Positions 1-63,706 of a stretch of 64,000 nt of DNA are shown here, piece by piece. The position numbers were made by a program, and so were the translations under genes. The notes under the pieces were generated by a model, which saw nothing but the letters and a program-made list of their open reading frames with translations, was not told the origin of the DNA and made no database searches. The stretch is from a virus. How positions within the stretch are numbered: position 1 is the stretch's first letter; the number at the start of each line of letters is the position of its first letter. The stretch is from IMG/VR virus record IMGVR_UViG_3300037063_000214. The stretch is one strand, 5' to 3'.

Positions 1-1068
1 TTACACAATAGAGTATCAGAACTATCCGATCAATTTCAAAAAAGCGTGGTTACAACTGCGGAACAAGGAGCACCTAAATCTCCAGAAAGGAGATCGTCTT
101 TAAAAGAACTGGTTAATATGTTCTGGAATCTTAAAGATCGAGGAGGATTAGCTATAACCCTATCAAAAAAAGGAATAATGTCTATGGAACAAGTCATGGA
201 TAAATCTATGACTCAAGAAAAATTGATAGACGCTTTAGATTCTGTAGACAAAAACGGACAAGGTTTGATACAGCAGGGGGATATCAATAATGATATAAAT
301 AACGATGGATTTAACGCTATGAAAAATAGCGAAGAGTTACTGTACCACATAAATGAAAGACAAAAAAAAGACAAAATTACAGACAAAGACAGGGAGAAAG
401 ATTTAGATGTAGCCAGAATGCTGCAAAGACGAGAAACTACTCCAGCGGATGCAATTGGAGCAATCTTTCAACCTTGGATTTTTGAACTTATTCATGGGGT
501 TGAAAAATTAGTAGACTTAGCTACCTTAGGAACTAATGATACAGAGGCACTAAAAAAACTTTACGAGGAAGATAAAGGGTCTATCCAAAAAGAGATAGAT
601 AATACTCAAAAATCCATGGATGATATATCTCAAGGGCTTAAAGATATAGCAGGCATACACACCACAGAAGCCGACAAAAAAAGAAAAGAGTTAGAAGAAA
701 AAGGTAAAAATCTATTAGCTTGGAGAAATAGATTAGACTTGATTAGTGGTAACCAATCTTACAGTACGCCGGTCGAAGCAGCCAGCGTAGAAGCAGGATT
801 GGGGTTACAGCCAATTGCAATGGATTTAACTAGCAGGTTACCTAAACAGTTGGACAATGGTTTAATATTAGAGACTAAGGGGGGTAGTAATCAACCACAA
901 TATAAAATAGATCAAAGTTCATTTATTGTAAATCAGTTTAGCGCTCCAATTAACCAGGATGCTGGGTATAATGACAGCGCAAGCGTGTCTAATGAACAAG
1001 CAGGTAAACAGATGCACCCGGCAATCGCTCCTTGGTTGAATGGGGGACTTCCAAATAGGAATCAATAA
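1..1068 (+). CDS. Hypothetical virion/internal protein, 5'-partial. The frame is open from position 1, so the ORF continues upstream of the window. Charged, coiled-coil-rich.
   Basis: Frame 1 has no stop from nt 1; the track shows 46..1068. Ends TAA at 1066-1068, immediately upstream of the SLT-domain gene, which suggests a tape-measure or internal-protein C-terminus. K/E/D-rich composition. Confidence 0.5.
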   Translation, partial: LHNRVSELSDQFQKSVVTTAEQGAPKSPERRSSLKELVNMFWNLKDRGGLAITLSKKGIMSMEQVMDKSMTQEKLIDALDSVDKNGQGLIQQGDINNDINNDGFNAMKNSEELLYHINERQKKDKITDKDREKDLDVARMLQRRETTPADAIGAIFQPWIFELIHGVEKLVDLATLGTNDTEALKKLYEEDKGSIQKEIDNTQKSMDDISQGLKDIAGIHTTEADKKRKELEEKGKNLLAWRNRLDLISGNQSYSTPVEAASVEAGLGLQPIAMDLTSRLPKQLDNGLILETKGGSNQPQYKIDQSSFIVNQFSAPINQDAGYNDSASVSNEQAGKQMHPAIAPWLNGGLPNRNQ

Positions 1069-1102
1069 TCAATAATCAATAATCAATAATCAATAATCAA
1101 TA
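1061..1102 (+). repeat. Heptanucleotide microsatellite (ATCAATA)x6 at a gene junction
   Basis: Six perfect tandem copies of atcaata at 1061-1102. It contains the TAA stop of the upstream ORF, places stops in all three frames, and its last copy supplies the AT of the ATG at 1102. Confidence 0.9.
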
Positions 1103-2556
1103 TGCCAACAATATATAATTTCAACCAATTAGAGGGTTTTGCAGCTAATGCAGGTTTTACAGGAGATCAAATACCCATCATGGCCGCTATTGCTTTAGCG
1201 GAGAGTAGTGGGAATCCCAATAAATATAATCCAGACGACCCTGGGGGGTCAGTAGGCCTTTGGCAAATAGATGGGCATTATTGGCCACAGTATGACCAAA
1301 ATGTAATAACAGATCCTCAAGCTAATGCTGACGCAGCCTTCGCTATTTTCCAAGCCCAAGGTTACCGTGCTTGGACTACCTTTGGAAGCGGTGCTTTTTT
1401 GGACCATCTAGACCCAAATACAGCAACTCAAGTTGCTAGTACTTTAGGAATTTCCCGGTTTAATGTACTAAATACTCCAGTAGCGCCTCAAGTAGGAAAT
1501 ATTATTGGGCCTAACACAACCGGTACTAATTACGGATTATCAGCGGCTGATCTTACACCGCCTTTACAGGTTCCGGAGCCAAGTCTAAGCGCCACGCCAT
1601 GGTATTTGGATAGAAATTTAGTCACTGGAAATCCTCATGCGCGTGGTATGGTACAACCAGTGAGTTTTGTAGTATACCTGGATCGTAATGACCCCACACA
1701 AACGCTGAATAACCCCACTAATCAGCAACCTATCGTCATTGAACTCAACACATCAATGACTACATTTGAAATAGCAAGTAAGCATGTTTACAATCGCACC
1801 CCATCGCGTACAGGTATGCATATCACCCTCTGGGGTATGCAACCGGATCTCATCAATGGTAGCGGCACTACGGGAGTGTTTATGAATCAATACGGTATTA
1901 CAGATTGGTTCAGCACCGCTCAAATTAATGATGAGATAGCTAAATTGGTAGGAGCTGGTTTTAGTAACAATCCCGATACAGAAAGGGCTATTAACCAAAA
2001 CCCAGAAGCCTATCGAGTAGCGGCACAGGATTGTTTTGTAGAATTTTTGAAGTTATTCCAAATGAACGGTAATGTGTGGTATCACACGGATAGTTATAAC
2101 GGAACTATGGGCGAACAAGAACAACAAGCCCCGAATGGTTGGTCTACCAAAGTAGGAGCCAGTTCATTTCAACAACATGGGCGTAACAATGATGTTATGA
2201 CACGCGGGTATGTGGGGATGAAGTATAGAAACAATGTTTATTTGGGGTATTTCAAGTCTTTGAATTGGACCCAAGATGCGGACAGCCCGTTTCAATGGAA
2301 ATTTTCTTTTACATTTCAAGTTGAGAATACCTATACATCATTGTATTATCCCAATTTCCAAGTTACTCAACCTCTCCCTAAGATTAATTTACTGGCTCAA
2401 GCTACAACGCAGCCGATTGTTACATTGACAGAACGTGGGGGATCCGCAAGTGTAGGAGGTCTTACCACAACTATGGTTACATCTGCAACTAATACCATAG
2501 CTCAAACTTTAGGTCCAGTACAAACTACAACTTCAGGACCCGTGGGAGATATTTAA
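1102..2556 (+). CDS. Virion-associated peptidoglycan hydrolase with an N-terminal SLT / lytic transglycosylase (GH23-like) domain
   Basis: N-terminus ...AAIALAESSGNPNKYNPDDPGGSVGLWQIDGHYW has the SLT catalytic Glu-Ser and GLxQI motifs. No SD; start overlaps the upstream repeat. The C-terminal 45 aa are shared with the 3723..6827 protein. Confidence 0.7.
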   Translation: MPTIYNFNQLEGFAANAGFTGDQIPIMAAIALAESSGNPNKYNPDDPGGSVGLWQIDGHYWPQYDQNVITDPQANADAAFAIFQAQGYRAWTTFGSGAFLDHLDPNTATQVASTLGISRFNVLNTPVAPQVGNIIGPNTTGTNYGLSAADLTPPLQVPEPSLSATPWYLDRNLVTGNPHARGMVQPVSFVVYLDRNDPTQTLNNPTNQQPIVIELNTSMTTFEIASKHVYNRTPSRTGMHITLWGMQPDLINGSGTTGVFMNQYGITDWFSTAQINDEIAKLVGAGFSNNPDTERAINQNPEAYRVAAQDCFVEFLKLFQMNGNVWYHTDSYNGTMGEQEQQAPNGWSTKVGASSFQQHGRNNDVMTRGYVGMKYRNNVYLGYFKSLNWTQDADSPFQWKFSFTFQVENTYTSLYYPNFQVTQPLPKINLLAQATTQPIVTLTERGGSASVGGLTTTMVTSATNTIAQTLGPVQTTTSGPVGDI

Positions 2557-3722
2557 TGGCAAGCACAAATACAAACAACTCCAATATTGGATCAAATGTA
2601 AGTACCGATTTTAGTGATTTCAATATAACTGCGGGAAATTCGGCGCAAACATCCCCTGTTCAACTGCCTATTCGCGGAGAGAAACGCATCATTCCCTGTC
2701 CTATTAGCCCCAGCGATACCAGTAGTCAGATTGAAAAAGCATATACAGCACGGGGACAAAAATCCCCTCAAGATAAGGGTTACGCTGCCACCGGTCGAAC
2801 AAGTCTTGTGCAATATAGCGATTTTTTTACAGCGGGGGCGATGAAACCCTTCGTGGATTATGTACTCGTTCGTATACCACATCGCGGAGTTACATCCACA
2901 GGACAACAAAATGGTAATGCACCAGCAGCTATTTTTCGATTTCTCATTAACCCGTCTCAGGTTCAAGTCAATCGACAAACTTTAGATGGGCAAGCTATGA
3001 CTCGTGCTGGCTGGCAGATAGGTGTGTGGGGAGAAGATTCTTTCCAAGTAAATCTCAGCGGTAAAACCGCTGGCCAATATTTTGCCTTTGGAGTTACAGA
3101 TCAGTTTCAACCATTTTCAGATTCCTATCGGAATTTAGAGTCTTTGGTCATGGTGTTTGAAAATAACGGATACTGGTTTGAAGGAGAGCAAGCAGCTGAA
3201 GGCCCACTCGCAGCGGATTTCACCAGACGTAGAATCAAAATGCACCAAGATGTCGAATTGTGGGTAGGAAATTTTATTTGGTACGGTATGTTTGATTCCC
3301 TTACTATTAGTCAATCGGCGGAAGCACCTTGGCTGATGAATTTTCAAATCAGTTTTATCGCGTGGAAAGAGAGATTTCGCTCCACATCCCCGTATCAAAA
3401 TTTGATTCTCAATAATGTACAACGAGGGCATACTTATGGAGCATGGGCTTCGGCTGCTACCACTTCACAAAATGGTACAACTACAGTATCATCGTTGGCT
3501 AATTTACCTCCATCAAATATACCAGGAACCAATATTTCTAGTGTTGGGTTTAGTACATTGAATAGTCAACCAGCTTTAGTCTCCCCATCTGTTGCGGCTG
3601 CTAATGTTAACAATACCCTGCCACAAGTAGCTCCTACATCCGTAGATAATATGGCAAATACATCTTTTCTTTTAAACCCCACTAGTGTGGCAGCGTCTAA
3701 TTTTTATAACGGAGTTTCTTAA
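2556..3722 (+). CDS. Hypothetical structural protein (388 aa)
   Basis: TAATG overlap with the upstream gene; Ser/Thr/Asn-rich C-terminus; same operon. Confidence 0.6.
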   Translation: MASTNTNNSNIGSNVSTDFSDFNITAGNSAQTSPVQLPIRGEKRIIPCPISPSDTSSQIEKAYTARGQKSPQDKGYAATGRTSLVQYSDFFTAGAMKPFVDYVLVRIPHRGVTSTGQQNGNAPAAIFRFLINPSQVQVNRQTLDGQAMTRAGWQIGVWGEDSFQVNLSGKTAGQYFAFGVTDQFQPFSDSYRNLESLVMVFENNGYWFEGEQAAEGPLAADFTRRRIKMHQDVELWVGNFIWYGMFDSLTISQSAEAPWLMNFQISFIAWKERFRSTSPYQNLILNNVQRGHTYGAWASAATTSQNGTTTVSSLANLPPSNIPGTNISSVGFSTLNSQPALVSPSVAAANVNNTLPQVAPTSVDNMANTSFLLNPTSVAASNFYNGVS

Positions 3723-40129: not shown

Positions 40130-41923
40130 GTGGAAGAATCTACAGTAGTAGCGCCAACAGTAAAAAATCTTATCTCGGAAAAATCCGCCGATCTGCGTGA
40201 CCATTTCCCCTTTAACACTATACGGGAAAATCAAAACGAGACTCTAGATAAGCTTGCAATCTGGAATAAAAGCAATAAAAAATTTTTCATTCTTGAGGCG
40301 GCCACCGGGTTCGGGAAAAGCCCAATAAATATCGCGGAAGCATCTTGGGCTAAAACATCAAAAGGACAATTTAAACCTGGTGCCTACATTCTCACCCCTC
40401 AAAAAACTCTAGCCCAACAATATATGACTGATTTTGAACCTTTGGGTTTAGTTGAACTCAAAGGGAGAACCAATTACACCTGCGCGAGCTGGTCAAAACA
40501 AATGGGGGATAGAGTAAATTGTGAAGATGGGGCATCTATGAATGAAGCCCAGAGAAAGAAGATATCCGATCAAGATAAAAATCCTTCAGAGGAGCCAGAC
40601 AATTTCGTGGATCAAAATCCCTCTCCAGAGGAGCCAGACGATTTCGTGGATCAAAATCCCTCTCCAGAGGTACGTTGTGGTTCCTGCCCATACCGCATTG
40701 CTAAAGATAAATTCATGCATTACCCTTTTGGTACAACAAATTTTGCATACTATTTGTACGAATCAAACCTCTCTGGTCAATTACCAAGAAGAAATACACT
40801 AATTTTAGACGAGGCTCATAACACAGAAGAACAAATTTTAGGCTTAACGGAAACAGTAATTACTCAAAAAGATTGTACTAAAAATGGTGTATCTGAAAAA
40901 CTTCCCATTTTTAAAGATAATGATTCAGATGCGGTTATGCTTTGGCTTGATAATATTTTGGTGCCCGCTATTTCTAAACGATTAATGCATCTGGCTTCGC
41001 AGCTAACATCTGAAAAAAACAGAGTAGCATTAGACGCGGCAAGAAAAAAATCAGCACTGGAGAATTTTATTTTACGCTTGAATTTTTTTCGTTACGCAAA
41101 AGATAAAAGTGAGTGGTTTGTTTGGTCCGACTGGAATGAACAATTTAAACAGGGTACAGGAGATTTGTGTATTAAGCCTTTAACCGCACGTTTATTTGCG
41201 CATGATCTTCTGTTCTCTAAAGCCCAAAAAATATTGATTACATCCGCTACGATTCTTGATCCCAATACTTTCATGCGTAGTTTAGGGATACATCCAAACG
41301 ATGCAGAGTATCTTTCTATTGGTAGTGAATTTCCCATAGAAAATCGTCCTCTATTTTATTGGCCGGTAGGGAATATGCGCCAAAAAGATATTAAAGAAAC
41401 TCTCCCAAAAATGGCAGAAGAGGTAGAAAAAATTTTAAAGTACGCTCGATATTCAACTAAAAAAGGAATTGTACACACACAATCCTATTACATCAATAAT
41501 TATTTGGTGCGATATTTGCGGGATAGAGGACTTGGGAATAGAATTATAACTCATGATTCGAATTTTGGAGCAAGGGAAGAAGCGCAATTTCAACATATAG
41601 TAGCTAGAGAAAAAGACCCTACTATTTTATTTTCTCCGTCTATGACAGAGGGGCTCGACCTTAGGGAGGATTTAAGTCGATTGCAAATAGTTTGTAAGGT
41701 TCCTTATCCAGCGCTTACGCCGTACAATAAAGCTAGAATGCAACGTGACCCTGCATATTATCAATGGCAAACCGCTTTAAAACTGGTTCAGCAAACCGGC
41801 AGAAGCAACCGAAGCGCAACTGATCGTTCCCATACTTTTATACTAGATTCTGGCTTTAGTACTTTTATTCAAAAAAATAATCATATCCTACCCAAGTACT
41901 GGCTCGATGCGATCCACTGGTAA
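40130..41923 (+). CDS. Superfamily-2 DEAH-box helicase, XPD/DinG-like with a Cys-rich (Fe-S) insert
   Basis: GTG start. Walker A EAATGFGKS; motif II LILDEAHN; motif VI QQTGRSNRS. Cys cluster YTC..NCED..RCGSC lies between motifs I and II. Confidence 0.7.
   Translation: MEESTVVAPTVKNLISEKSADLRDHFPFNTIRENQNETLDKLAIWNKSNKKFFILEAATGFGKSPINIAEASWAKTSKGQFKPGAYILTPQKTLAQQYMTDFEPLGLVELKGRTNYTCASWSKQMGDRVNCEDGASMNEAQRKKISDQDKNPSEEPDNFVDQNPSPEEPDDFVDQNPSPEVRCGSCPYRIAKDKFMHYPFGTTNFAYYLYESNLSGQLPRRNTLILDEAHNTEEQILGLTETVITQKDCTKNGVSEKLPIFKDNDSDAVMLWLDNILVPAISKRLMHLASQLTSEKNRVALDAARKKSALENFILRLNFFRYAKDKSEWFVWSDWNEQFKQGTGDLCIKPLTARLFAHDLLFSKAQKILITSATILDPNTFMRSLGIHPNDAEYLSIGSEFPIENRPLFYWPVGNMRQKDIKETLPKMAEEVEKILKYARYSTKKGIVHTQSYYINNYLVRYLRDRGLGNRIITHDSNFGAREEAQFQHIVAREKDPTILFSPSMTEGLDLREDLSRLQIVCKVPYPALTPYNKARMQRDPAYYQWQTALKLVQQTGRSNRSATDRSHTFILDSGFSTFIQKNNHILPKYWLDAIHW
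40578..40670 (+). repeat. 39-nt tandem direct repeat (two full copies plus partial flanks) inside the helicase Fe-S region, encoding PEEPD(N/D)FVDQNPS x2
   Basis: cagaggagccagacaatttcgtggatcaaaatccctctc at 40587-40625 and again at 40626-40664 (1 mismatch), with partial copies on both sides. Confidence 0.85.
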
Positions 41924-43143: not shown

Positions 43144-43731
43144 ATGACAATCTACTATAAACTCACGACACAAGAAGGAATGACCCAAAACAATACCCAA
43201 TGGGGCGAGAATGTAACTCATGAGGCTACGGGAGACATTGAGCAAGATTTATGCTCCAATGCATGGATACATGCGTACACCCATCCCTTACTCGCCATAC
43301 TCATGAACCCGGCTCATGCGATGATAAAAAATCCCATCCTTTGGGAAGGAAATGGAGAAGGGGAAGCAAAATTTGAACCCCTTAAGTGCGGGTTCAGAAA
43401 GTTTACTACGCTTCGACAAATTCCTCTTCCCGAAGTAACCAATGTTCAAAAGGTAGCCTTTGGTATTCTCTGTGCTAAAGAAATAAATACGGACTCAAGT
43501 TGGAACCAATGGGCAGATAAGTGGTTAAGCGGGGAGGATCGTACTAAATCTTCTGCTTATTATGCTGCTTATGCTGCTGCTTCTGCTGCTTCTGCTGCTT
43601 ATGCTGCTTCTAATGCTGCTAAGTATGCTGATGCTGCTGCTTATGCTGCTTATGCTGCTTATAATGCTGCTTCTAAAGGCAAAGAATTAGATTTTGTTTC
43701 GATTGCCCTTAAAGCCATGGAGGTGAAATGA
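43144..43731 (+). CDS. Hypothetical protein with a C-terminal Ala/Tyr-rich repeat (AAYAA)n
   Basis: C-terminus SAYYAAYAAASAASAAYAASNAAKYADAAAYAAYAAYNAAS is encoded by a GCT-rich microsatellite at 43549-43680. Confidence 0.55.
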   Translation: MTIYYKLTTQEGMTQNNTQWGENVTHEATGDIEQDLCSNAWIHAYTHPLLAILMNPAHAMIKNPILWEGNGEGEAKFEPLKCGFRKFTTLRQIPLPEVTNVQKVAFGILCAKEINTDSSWNQWADKWLSGEDRTKSSAYYAAYAAASAASAAYAASNAAKYADAAAYAAYAAYNAASKGKELDFVSIALKAMEVK

Positions 43732-59548: not shown

Positions 59549-59624
59549 GCTCTTGTAGCTCAGTGTAGAGCATTCCGTGTGCAACGGAAGGGTCGGATGG
59601 TTCAACTCCATCCCAAGGGCTCCA
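59549..59624 (+). tRNA. tRNA-like element, possibly a degenerate tRNA (anticodon loop tgTGCaa implies UGC/Ala) with an encoded 3' CCA
   Basis: Acceptor gctcttg/caagggc (one U-G) then t, CCA. D-arm gctc-agtgta-gagc (6-nt loop). Anticodon stem ttccg/cggaa. T-arm ggatgg-ttcaact-ccatcc. Non-canonical G at position 33 and a 6-bp T-stem. Confidence 0.5.
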
Positions 59625-59629
59625 AATTT

Positions 59630-60595
59630 ATGAAGGAAATCTATGAACGAGTAGCGGCAGATTTCGCAGAGAAAATTGACCATCTGTTTGAATCTGAAAA
59701 ATCCCTAGAGACCACATTTAAACAGTATTACGAAGGTTTGCCCTTTGATCGTACAGAGCACTGGAGCGGTATCATCCACAAAATTTTATCTGATTCCTGG
59801 AAAGACAAAGGACCTGAAGTAAAGTGTGAACCTACAGGAATGGATAAACTTCAAATTATGCGTTATCTTCATCATCTTCTGGATTACAATATTTTTACTC
59901 AAGTACTTCTCAATCTCCAAGGATACACCGGTATGTTTTATATGACCGGAGATGCCCAAGCTGAGATTGAGCGAATGAAATCAGCATGGTCTTCAGCATA
60001 CAAACTTGACCCCTTTGCTCCAAAGGCTAAAATGCTGAAACAGGCTGAAGCGATTACCGAAGAACAAAAACAATACAATCAAACTATCAGTGCTCTTCGT
60101 GCCCTGCGTATCATCACTCAGTTTACTCCACAAATTAGCTTCAGAGTGAGCCCAAAAGGGTCTACACCGGCCTTCGCAGACAGTCGTAATATCAGTATGA
60201 TAGGGTTGGGGGGAGATCGCTTTCTTAAAACGATATCATCCCTCAAACCGTATTACATTACTTGGAATCAAGTTCCTCAAATAGCCCAATTTATCGGGAT
60301 TACCACACCACCAGGGCACGATGTTCCTGTCTCTACATTTAAAGCAGACGGCATATCATATGAATTCCATTCAAAATCTGGTGGAGAAGTGATTCAAGAT
60401 GTTCTTTTTGCTAGAAAAATCATGTATGAAATCTTCCGAGATGTTAATATAACCAGAGAGACTTGTATCATGATTCCTCGTATGAATTCTATTTTGATTG
60501 TTGGGGATGTAGTATTTGAGAATCTACAAAAGGCATACGAGCGCCTGTACAAGATGTATCCGGTCATTAGTTTTGTGGATGGGATTCGTGCCTAA
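59630..60595 (+). CDS. Hypothetical protein (321 aa)
   Basis: First ATG downstream of the tRNA-like element. Track ORF 59579 would start inside the tRNA. Confidence 0.5.
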   Translation: MKEIYERVAADFAEKIDHLFESEKSLETTFKQYYEGLPFDRTEHWSGIIHKILSDSWKDKGPEVKCEPTGMDKLQIMRYLHHLLDYNIFTQVLLNLQGYTGMFYMTGDAQAEIERMKSAWSSAYKLDPFAPKAKMLKQAEAITEEQKQYNQTISALRALRIITQFTPQISFRVSPKGSTPAFADSRNISMIGLGGDRFLKTISSLKPYYITWNQVPQIAQFIGITTPPGHDVPVSTFKADGISYEFHSKSGGEVIQDVLFARKIMYEIFRDVNITRETCIMIPRMNSILIVGDVVFENLQKAYERLYKMYPVISFVDGIRA

Positions 60596-62790: not shown

Positions 62791-63444
62791 ATGAATAAAT
62801 CAATTGTTACCGTTCTTTCACTAGCACTTTTTATGACTCCCCTTATTGCACAAGAAGAAAAAGGTGGACATGAATCGGCTAGACCCCAAGCAGCGCAACA
62901 TGAAGGCGCAGCAAAACAAACAGCACCAAAACAAGAAAAAGTTCCAAAGGCTGAAAAAGTAGCCAAAGTTCCGAAGGCTGAGAAACAAGAAAAGGCCCCA
63001 AAGACAGAGAAAGTAGCTAAGACTCAGGCTCCAAAAGCTGAGAAGCAAGCAAGATCTGAAAAGCCTACAGCTGTAAAGGCCCAAAAGCAGGAAAAGGCCC
63101 CTAAACAGGAAAAAGTAAAGGCTGAAAAACCAGAGACTCAAAAAGAGGATCGTACCAATGAGATAGCACATCAAAATTGGAACGGTAAGAATTTTAAGCC
63201 AGAATACTTTAAATCTAACTTTGGTGAATCGCACGGTTTTGGTATTCGCAGTGCTCAATGGCAGGGAAATCAATTCCATTCAGGCTCACGCTTTATGTTC
63301 GGCGGTGCGTGGTTTGTACTAGGAGAGGATCTACCTCTAGATTGGTACAGCTGCAACACCTATATCAATGAATATGAAGGCGGATATGCTCTTTACTGCC
63401 CTGAATATCCAGGCGTTCCATTTGGAATCACTGTAGTATTCTAA
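62791..63444 (+). CDS. Secreted/anchored protein with a Lys/Pro/Glu-rich (PKxEK)n linker and a C-terminal globular domain ending in F (TolA/TonB-like architecture)
   Basis: GAGGAAA SD. N-terminal hydrophobic MNKSIVTVLSLALFMTPLIA. Repeats KVPKAEKVAKVPKAEKQEKAPKTEKVAK... C-terminal 100-aa domain ...GVPFGITVVF. Confidence 0.6.
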   Translation: MNKSIVTVLSLALFMTPLIAQEEKGGHESARPQAAQHEGAAKQTAPKQEKVPKAEKVAKVPKAEKQEKAPKTEKVAKTQAPKAEKQARSEKPTAVKAQKQEKAPKQEKVKAEKPETQKEDRTNEIAHQNWNGKNFKPEYFKSNFGESHGFGIRSAQWQGNQFHSGSRFMFGGAWFVLGEDLPLDWYSCNTYINEYEGGYALYCPEYPGVPFGITVVF

Positions 63445-63465: not shown

Positions 63466-63500
63466 ATATAGCCACTAATATAGTGGCTATATTTTTTATC
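63466..63500 (+). terminator. Rho-independent terminator
   Basis: atatagccact-aat-agtggctatat hairpin followed by TTTTTT. Confidence 0.7.
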
Positions 63501-63518
63501 GTGGCTATATTTTTTATC
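63483..63518 (+). repeat. Perfect 18-bp tandem duplication gtggctatattttttatc x2 overlapping the terminator's 3' half
   Basis: Identical copies at 63483-63500 and 63501-63518. Confidence 0.85.
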
Positions 63519-63706
63519 GTTACACTTGTTAAATTTTTATCGGACTTTTCATTTCATAAGTAGATACGAGAACGCGAAGAAAAATTATTTGAAATACTAG
63601 GATGAAATAATTGGTCTGCTGCGAAACTCGTAGCTTTCAAAACCCCACAACTAACAGGGTTCGCCGTGGAAACTACAGTCAACCAACCAAAGACAAGGAG
63701 AATTTA

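Follow-up and report, generated by a model that had tools for sequence, protein, structure and literature searches.

The 64,000-nt stretch of viral DNA analyzed here (hereafter the window; IMG/VR virus record IMGVR_UViG_3300037063_000214) carries six perfect copies of the heptanucleotide ATCAATA at positions 1061-1102 of its + strand, and the number of these copies differs between contigs of the same phage. The (ATCAATA)x6 array is non-coding, contains no G and varies in length; it separates a gene assigned by synteny to a tape-measure protein from the gene of a lytic tail protein with an N-terminal SLT domain (termed the lysin below). We observed alleles of 7, 6, 4 and 3+1 units at this junction, including alleles with identical flanking sequences. 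The explanation that we favor, and to which we give about an even chance, is that the array is a slippage-born, hypervariable and unstructured spacer which uncoupled the lysin from the tape-measure gene and which may tune lysin translation. The phage is uncultivated, originates from peat or soil, and extends to at least 176 kb.

Copy-number alleles of a heptanucleotide array

Tandem Repeats Finder called the array at 1060-1102, with a period of 7, 6.1 copies, 100% matches and a score of 86. At the same base composition, the expected number of 35-base runs with period-7 identity is 1.6e-16 per window, so that the array is not a product of chance, and the two-unit 14-mer has no other copy in the 64-kb window with fewer than two mismatches. 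Both signals of the junction are supplied by the array: the TAA stop of the upstream gene (1066-1068, + strand) arises where repeat units 1 and 2 meet, and the last base of the array (1102) is the A of the lysin gene's ATG (1102-1104), leaving a stop-to-ATG gap of 33 nt in the window (1069-1101). TAA triplets are found at 1066, 1073, 1080, 1087 and 1094 and cover all three frames. An initial annotation of the window had described six perfect repeats bridging the two genes across a 33-nt gap, with stops in every frame, and this description was confirmed in the sequence and by Tandem Repeats Finder. A fusion of tape measure and lysin by frameshifting or readthrough is ruled out by the stops in all three frames.

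The same annotation had proposed a check of repeat-number heterogeneity in related isolates, which proved positive. The junction was read in 14 contigs, namely the window and 13 distinct contigs found by exact-protein look-ups, and all length differences between them amounted to whole units. The commonest allele, with 7 units and a gap of 40 nt, was present in seven of the 14 (L004, L008, L010, L011, L013, L028 and L032). Six units (33 nt) were found in the window and in L012, four units (19 nt) in L005 and L009, and an array with an imperfect first unit, ATTAATA(ATCAATA)3 or 3+1, in L006, L007 and L022, where the gap is 22 nt and the upstream protein has a different C-terminus. The exact DNA pattern of the right flank was not found in the metagenome_contigs or viral_contigs collections, in which this phage is absent. 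The window's 1034-amino-acid (aa) protein had no record in the look-up, hence no further contigs of the window haplotype were obtained.

By comparing the flanks of contigs carrying different alleles, we could set the variation of the array against that of the surrounding DNA. L004 and L008, with 7 units, show no single-nucleotide polymorphism (SNP) relative to L009, with 4 units, in 2,359 nt upstream and 6,350 nt downstream of the array, and L004 differs from the 4-unit contig L005 by 5 SNPs across 11.3 kb. Compared with a nucleotide site, the array thus evolves faster by orders of magnitude. We conclude that it is a hypervariable microsatellite, its hypermutability being read from the population of assembled contigs. 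Both defining features of a microsatellite or variable-number tandem repeat (VNTR) were found, a short unit (1-9 nt) repeated head-to-tail and whole-unit polymorphism among close genomes, and the locus thus belongs to this class with every defining feature present. Slippage would be the simplest cause of the copy-number change, because a recombination tract would need to be confined to the array. We give almost no credence to the possibility that the length differences are assembly or sequencing artefacts. Assembler miscounts or polymerase stutter are possible at short repeats, but reads and final k-mers (k141 in the contig names) exceed the arrays (29-50 nt) in length, and identical discrete whole-unit alleles recur across independent samples and pipelines. 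The same alleles were recovered from at least three assembly sources (JGI, ENA k141 MEGAHIT-style contigs and ENA WOOD18 scaffolds).

The upstream, tape-measure-like gene also varies, occurring in two allelic forms within this one phage population (window 1-960; L004:1604-4960 versus L006:1640-4978). Forms A and B are identical over their first ~230 aa and last ~35 aa, share 50-90% identity in the middle and only ~20% over the C-terminal ~500 aa, a pattern that indicates a swapped module. Form B is carried by the window, L012 and L006, and form A by the other contigs. A second junction allele, in which the upstream protein ends in …WLNPSRIPNRLGN in place of …WLNGGLPNRNQ (L006:4950-5000, L007:2910-2960, L022:150-210), is associated with form A in L007 and with form B in L006, which points to recombination near the junction. 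L022 additionally carries the lysin substitution Pro2Gln. Many contigs stop within the upstream gene, probably through strain mixture breaking the assemblies.

Arrays of the same unit, (ATCAATA)n with 4-11 copies, were also seen in 26 unrelated viral contigs of IMG/VR (L033-L058), mostly very A/T-rich, with many giant-virus bins among them; in two of these (L039 and L054) the array leads directly into an ATG, as in the window.

The junction in relatives and the reach of copy number

In order to compare this junction with its counterparts, 66 related metagenome loci and eight more found by protein look-ups were examined, yielding 38 non-redundant junction sequences. The stop-to-ATG gap lies between -4 and +4 nt in 36 of these relatives and is +15 or +16 nt in the remaining two; a GGAG- or AGGA-type Shine-Dalgarno-like motif is present at -20 to -5 in 32, and a repeat with a unit of at least 4 nt in none of the 38 junctions. 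In the cultured Tunturiibacter phage Tunturi_5, the genes of the tape-measure and lytic tail proteins overlap by 1 nt. The window's next three operon junctions, at 2556, 3723 and 6829, measure -1, 0 and +1 nt and provide an internal control showing that tight spacing is normal in this phage. Judged from these sequences, tight coupling together with a Shine-Dalgarno motif is the state of this junction across the family and, given that the junctions of the relatives are tight and repeat-free, the array is a young, lineage-specific insertion into such a coupled junction. Several relatives have upstream genes that end in ...CAATAA, followed by 0-3 nt and then ATG, and these ends are a plausible seed of the ATCAATA unit. 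Lysin homologues are carried by contigs of 330-465 kb and by one of 894 kb (e.g. L016, L018, L060 and L077), and the wider family looks like one of very large ("huge") peat and soil phages.

The 41 nt preceding the lysin ATG in the window do not contain a single G, and the gene consequently has no Shine-Dalgarno motif. The only such motif near the junction is an AGGA directly 5' of the array (1057-1060, + strand), at a distance from the ATG of 41 nt with 6 units, 27 nt with 4 units and 48 nt with 7 units. A one-unit array would put AGGA 6 nt from the ATG, where Shine-Dalgarno motifs usually lie in this phage, the other motifs of the window starting at about -13 to -7. The absence of a Shine-Dalgarno motif had been remarked upon in the initial annotation; the remark is accurate, but the gene is not exceptional in this respect, since about half of the window's genes lack one.

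The position of the array limits what a change in copy number can do. With the stop placed where the first two units meet and the ATG beginning in the last one, no allele of two or more units disrupts either open reading frame (ORF). As both codons are supplied by the array, gain or loss of units only shifts the distance between them (5, 12, 19, 26, 33 and 40 nt for 2 to 7 units) and never breaks an ORF, which makes the phase effect that had been attributed to the 7-nt unit irrelevant. A contingency locus of the frame-shifting type has its repeat inside an ORF; this array sits in the intercistronic leader, where it alters the stop-to-start and AGGA-to-start distances. Showing hypermutability but no frame effect, it is at most a candidate contingency locus, and it would at most work like a leader-repeat rheostat. 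A consensus scan of 700-1400 detected neither a promoter nor a terminator on the + strand, and a search of Rfam with 800-1400 gave no match at E<=1.

Several other ways in which the array might act were considered and rejected. The array is predicted to be largely unpaired (mean unpaired probability of 0.81-0.87) and, in modelled arrays of 1-10 units, the accessibility of the start site remains flat at ~0.75, so that RNA structure is ruled out as the mediator of a copy-number effect. An integration host factor (IHF) site or a dispersed regulatory motif is likewise ruled out, the unit fitting only the ATCAA core and the 14-mer being absent elsewhere in the window. The stop, the array and the ATG are enclosed by a perfect 9-nt inverted repeat, TTGGTTGAA / TTCAACCAA, with arms at 1032-1040 and 1120-1128 of the + strand. 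It was rejected as a coupling helix: the fold of 1020-1140 is no better than that of shuffled sequences (z = -0.18) and the relatives have no consistent equivalent.

What remains is distance. Translationally coupled pairs have gaps of about -8 to +10 nt, as do 36 of the 38 relatives; none of the alleles of the phage studied here (19, 22, 33 and 40 nt) falls in this range. In reporter studies, reinitiation drops by 40-80% at ~14 nt, is nearly gone at ~20 nt and reaches background at 38-40 nt (PMC10666635, PMC2268962), and downstream genes that are initiated independently are mostly insensitive to intercistronic distance (PMC2268962). The initial annotation had considered that the lysin gene is probably translated by termination-reinitiation through the array. 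Set against the reporter data, this dependence appears unlikely, because the gaps amount to 19-40 nt and the commonest allele places 40 nt before a strictly conserved structural gene. An effect of copy number on translation would plausibly be graded at most.

A proposed variable spacer and the alternatives to it

We propose that the heptanucleotide expanded within an ancestrally tight stop/start junction of the tape-measure and lytic tail protein genes. This expansion would have carried AGGA, the former Shine-Dalgarno motif, as well as the stop codon too far from the ATG to serve it, and reinitiation and Shine-Dalgarno-assisted initiation would thereby have been largely lost. The lysin would now be translated mainly by independent, Shine-Dalgarno-free initiation, for which the array itself, G-free, A/U-rich and predicted to be free of structure, would serve as leader. 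Copy number would then set the length of a spacer and possibly adjust the yield of lysin quantitatively, with no frame-dependent ON/OFF switching. This adjustment could take one of three routes: residual coupling could persist at 19-22 nt and be absent at 33-40 nt, a ribosome terminating upstream could occlude the lysin start site at short gaps, or the length of the A/U-rich landing platform could itself matter. Gaps of 19, 22, 33 and 40 nt occur as a natural series of alleles in wild genomes whose backgrounds are nearly identical. Should copy number alter lysin yield, the repeat would be tuning expression in a new manner, by stepwise uncoupling of two cistrons, and the series would offer a natural test of the reach of translational coupling.

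Several considerations weigh against this proposal. The sample amounts to only 14 contigs, and alleles of 5 and 8 copies are not among them. The 6-copy and 3+1 alleles lie on somewhat different backgrounds, and some of the variation may thus have been spread by recombination instead of arising by fresh slippage. All statements on translation are extrapolated from reporter work in E. coli and Haloferax. The direction of an effect is ambiguous, as coupling should fall with length and independent initiation could rise with it. Finally, with about half of the phage genes devoid of a Shine-Dalgarno motif, the lysin start may never have needed coupling, and copy number may be irrelevant.

The array could then be a neutral VNTR, a slippage-prone repeat without effect on expression or fitness, for which any spacer of at least ~19 nt is equivalent: the lysin would initiate independently and the array would drift, since every length leaves both ORFs intact. 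We regard this as a serious possibility, if a tentative one. It agrees with the retention of the stop and the start in all alleles, with a predicted structure and start accessibility that are constant across copy numbers, with the absence of the array from all 38 relatives, which marks it as young and not as a conserved regulatory element, and with the finding that independently translated downstream genes are largely insensitive to distance (PMC2268962). Furthermore, arrays of at least 4 units arose independently in the 26 unrelated A/T-rich viral contigs, as generic slippage predicts. Neutrality is harder to reconcile with a junction that is otherwise held at -4 to +4 nt across the family, implying selection on spacing, or with the fact that 19-40 nt spans distances over which residual coupling and ribosome-footprint overlap change, both of these arguments being indirect. 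If copy number has no effect, the locus would be a clean case of a repeat invading a constrained junction harmlessly, since both the stop and the start codon come with the repeat, and it would provide a ready strain marker for the phage population.

At the other extreme, the initial annotation had the lysin depend on reinitiation through the array, changes of spacing and phase acting as a contingency-style ON/OFF switch. The hypervariability is genuine, the lysin gene has no Shine-Dalgarno motif, its product acts at the phage-host interface and the efficiency of reinitiation is strongly distance-dependent (PMC10666635), all of which would suit such a switch. However, copy number leaves the reading frames unaffected, and all gaps (19-40 nt) fall at distances that leave little or no reinitiation (PMC10666635, PMC2268962). 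The commonest allele, moreover, has the longest gap, which would turn a conserved structural tail gene off in most genomes, and no short "ON-like" allele of 1-2 units occurs among the 14 contigs. The switch is not supported by these data and we consider it very unlikely. A less drastic proposal is that the array is a phage-encoded tuning device, slippage producing subpopulations that differ in their ratio of lytic transglycosylase to tape measure by way of the stop-to-start distance. We judge this unlikely, although less so than a switch. Were it true, the phage would hedge its bets on penetrating the cell wall of different hosts or of hosts in different states, and the array would be the first repeat-driven "translational-coupling rheostat", as well as a second and mechanistically different form of repeat-mediated variation in phages after the polyG tracts of Campylobacter phages.

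An action at the DNA level, with the array serving as a promoter or as iterated protein-binding sites that tune transcription of the lysin and downstream tail genes, seems highly improbable. Each unit junction does contain AATAAT, which agrees with the -10 hexamer at 5 of 6 positions, and the best-known 7-bp repeat, at hmw, was for a long time placed within a promoter region (PMC10127715). Nevertheless, the scan of 700-1400 revealed no + strand promoter, no further occurrence of the unit was detected in the 64-kb window, the junction lies within a tightly packed, co-oriented tail operon, and the gaps of -4 to +4 nt in the relatives leave no room for a promoter.

The hmw case deserves further comparison, as the (ATCTTTC)n repeat of hmw1A/hmw2A in Haemophilus influenzae is the closest functional analogue of the array (PMC12721329, PMC10127715). 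Both consist of a 7-nt heteropolymeric unit located upstream of a start codon in non-coding sequence, and both display natural whole-unit variation. The hmw output is graded and not a frame-based ON/OFF, and a graded output is also the one proposed for the phage array. The hmw repeat lies in a transcribed leader; transcription across the phage array is suggested by the absent promoter and terminator and by the packing of the operon. The hmw arrays comprise 10 to >60 units and form a hairpin with a G-rich arm in the 5'-untranslated region, which is cut by RNase III, and expression falls with length (PMC12721329, PMC10127715). This hairpin, seen with at least 10-11 units, has no counterpart in the phage array, which has 3-7 units and no G, is predicted to be unpaired (0.81-0.87) and folds no better than shuffled sequences (z = -0.18). 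A further difference is the location of the phage array, between two genes of one operon.

Bacteria classically use hypervariable repeats to generate diversity, but in phages such repeats have scarcely been documented. Campylobacter phages are reported to have hypermutable polyG tracts inside the ORFs of receptor-binding proteins, which are switched ON and OFF by frameshifting (Sorensen et al. 2021, Cell Rep 35:109214, cited in PMC10579305). These tracts resemble the array in being simple-sequence repeats of phages located at a virion or host-interaction gene and in generating heterogeneity within phage populations; they are homopolymers inside an ORF, whereas the array is a heptanucleotide outside any ORF and exerts no frame effect. 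The polyG tracts are the only repeat-mediated variation in phages that could be confirmed in the literature searched. The view that such a repeat would be unusual for a phage thus does not hold for the kind of variation (PMC10579305), but it does hold for the position: the literature searched, whose coverage was incomplete, offered no earlier example of such an intercistronic repeat in a phage, which is a weak negative.

With respect to translationally coupled gene pairs (PMC10666635, PMC12548453), the tape-measure stop and lysin ATG of the relatives (-4 to +4 nt) are textbook cases. The pair in the window is also co-oriented, with no promoter or terminator in between, yet the gaps of its alleles (19-40 nt) exceed the distances at which the reporter studies could measure coupling, and the locus looks like a coupled pair pulled apart by repeat expansion. 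Finally, the array shares with the ordinary bacterial and viral VNTRs used in multiple-locus VNTR analysis (MLVA) typing its perfect head-to-tail units and whole-unit polymorphism, for which no function is required; it differs from them by being placed exactly on a strongly constrained stop/start junction and by supplying both the stop and the start codon.

Flanking genes and other features of the window

The upstream gene enters the window in frame from base 1 and occupies 1-1068 of the + strand, which corresponds to its 3' part (355 codons) in allelic form B. The full gene encodes ~1,112-1,118 aa and could be read in L004 (1118 aa) and L006 (1112 aa). Its protein has no significant match in Pfam or PHROG; the upstream protein of one relative gave a sub-threshold match to TMP_2. 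In Tunturi_5 the gene order is tail assembly chaperone, tape-measure protein (1106 aa), lytic tail protein, and virion and tail proteins, and order and sizes at the window's locus are alike (about 200, 1118, 484, 388 and 1034 aa). On the basis of this synteny, and despite the lack of a significant family match, we call the upstream gene a tape-measure gene, a designation that upholds and refines the "virion gene" of the initial annotation.

The lytic tail protein gene (1102-2556, + strand) encodes 484 aa, with an N-terminal SLT_3 lytic-transglycosylase domain at residues 13-93 and a conserved C-terminal tail-protein domain. The assignment of an SLT domain by the initial annotation was borne out by Pfam, with SLT_3 at 4.6e-19 and 69.1 bits (cutoff 27) and SLT at 26.2 bits (cutoff 21.3), by a profile search of the PDB, which retrieved Slt70 and MltC at about 1e-4, and by the intact catalytic Glu34-Ser35 (ALAE34S35S). 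The start at 1102 is backed by homologues that start at the same point (MANYTYQQLE in L021, MPTIYNFNQLE in the window). The identical 484-aa protein is present on 43 public contigs. Its only cultured relative is the "lytic tail protein" of Tunturi_5 (34.6% identity; genome of 309 kb), and a megablast of window positions 1-3000 against cultured phages gave no match. Nine lysin relatives that are closest in the C-terminal domain (P0002, P0003, P0008, P0011, P0022, P0025, P0029, P0050 and P0101) carry Ser, Cys, Ala or Gly at the position of the catalytic Glu, and the same nine align to the query only across its C-terminal ~60-65%. The N-terminal enzyme domain (window 1102-1480, lysin residues 1-125) thus seems to have been repeatedly exchanged or inactivated in the family.

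The next gene of the tail module (2556-3722, + strand; 388 aa) overlaps the lysin gene by 1 nt and has a weak match to Phage_tail_tube_init. A 391-aa form of this gene in L013 was traced to a run of N in the scaffold and is not a genuine variant.

Additional repeats were noted elsewhere in the window. A 39-nt tandem repeat at 40574-40670 (2.6 copies, 91-97% matches) lies in frame in the ORF at 40130-41923, where it encodes DQNPSPEEPD-FV peptides, and may be another length-variable site. At 43550-43674, an imperfect periodic repeat of 9/12/30 nt in the ORF at 43144-43731 encodes a low-complexity tract rich in Ala and Tyr (…SSAYYAAYAAASAASAAYAASNAAKYADAAAYAAYAAYNAAS…). The ORF at 62791-63444 has a hydrophobic, signal-like N-terminus followed by repeats rich in Lys, Glu and Pro (of the KAEKQEKAPK type), with DNA repeats of 27 nt and 18 nt at 62928-63113. 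Just downstream of this ORF, at 63479-63520, the 18-nt unit TATCGTGGCTATATTTTT is repeated 2.3 times; beside it lies a GCCAC…GTGGC hairpin followed by a T-run, which looks like a duplicated terminator. Lastly, a tRNA-Ala gene (anticodon TGC) is located among the phage genes at 59549-59624, and the 5' end of the ORF at 59579-60595, which starts with GTG, is probably spurious because this ORF overlaps the tRNA gene.

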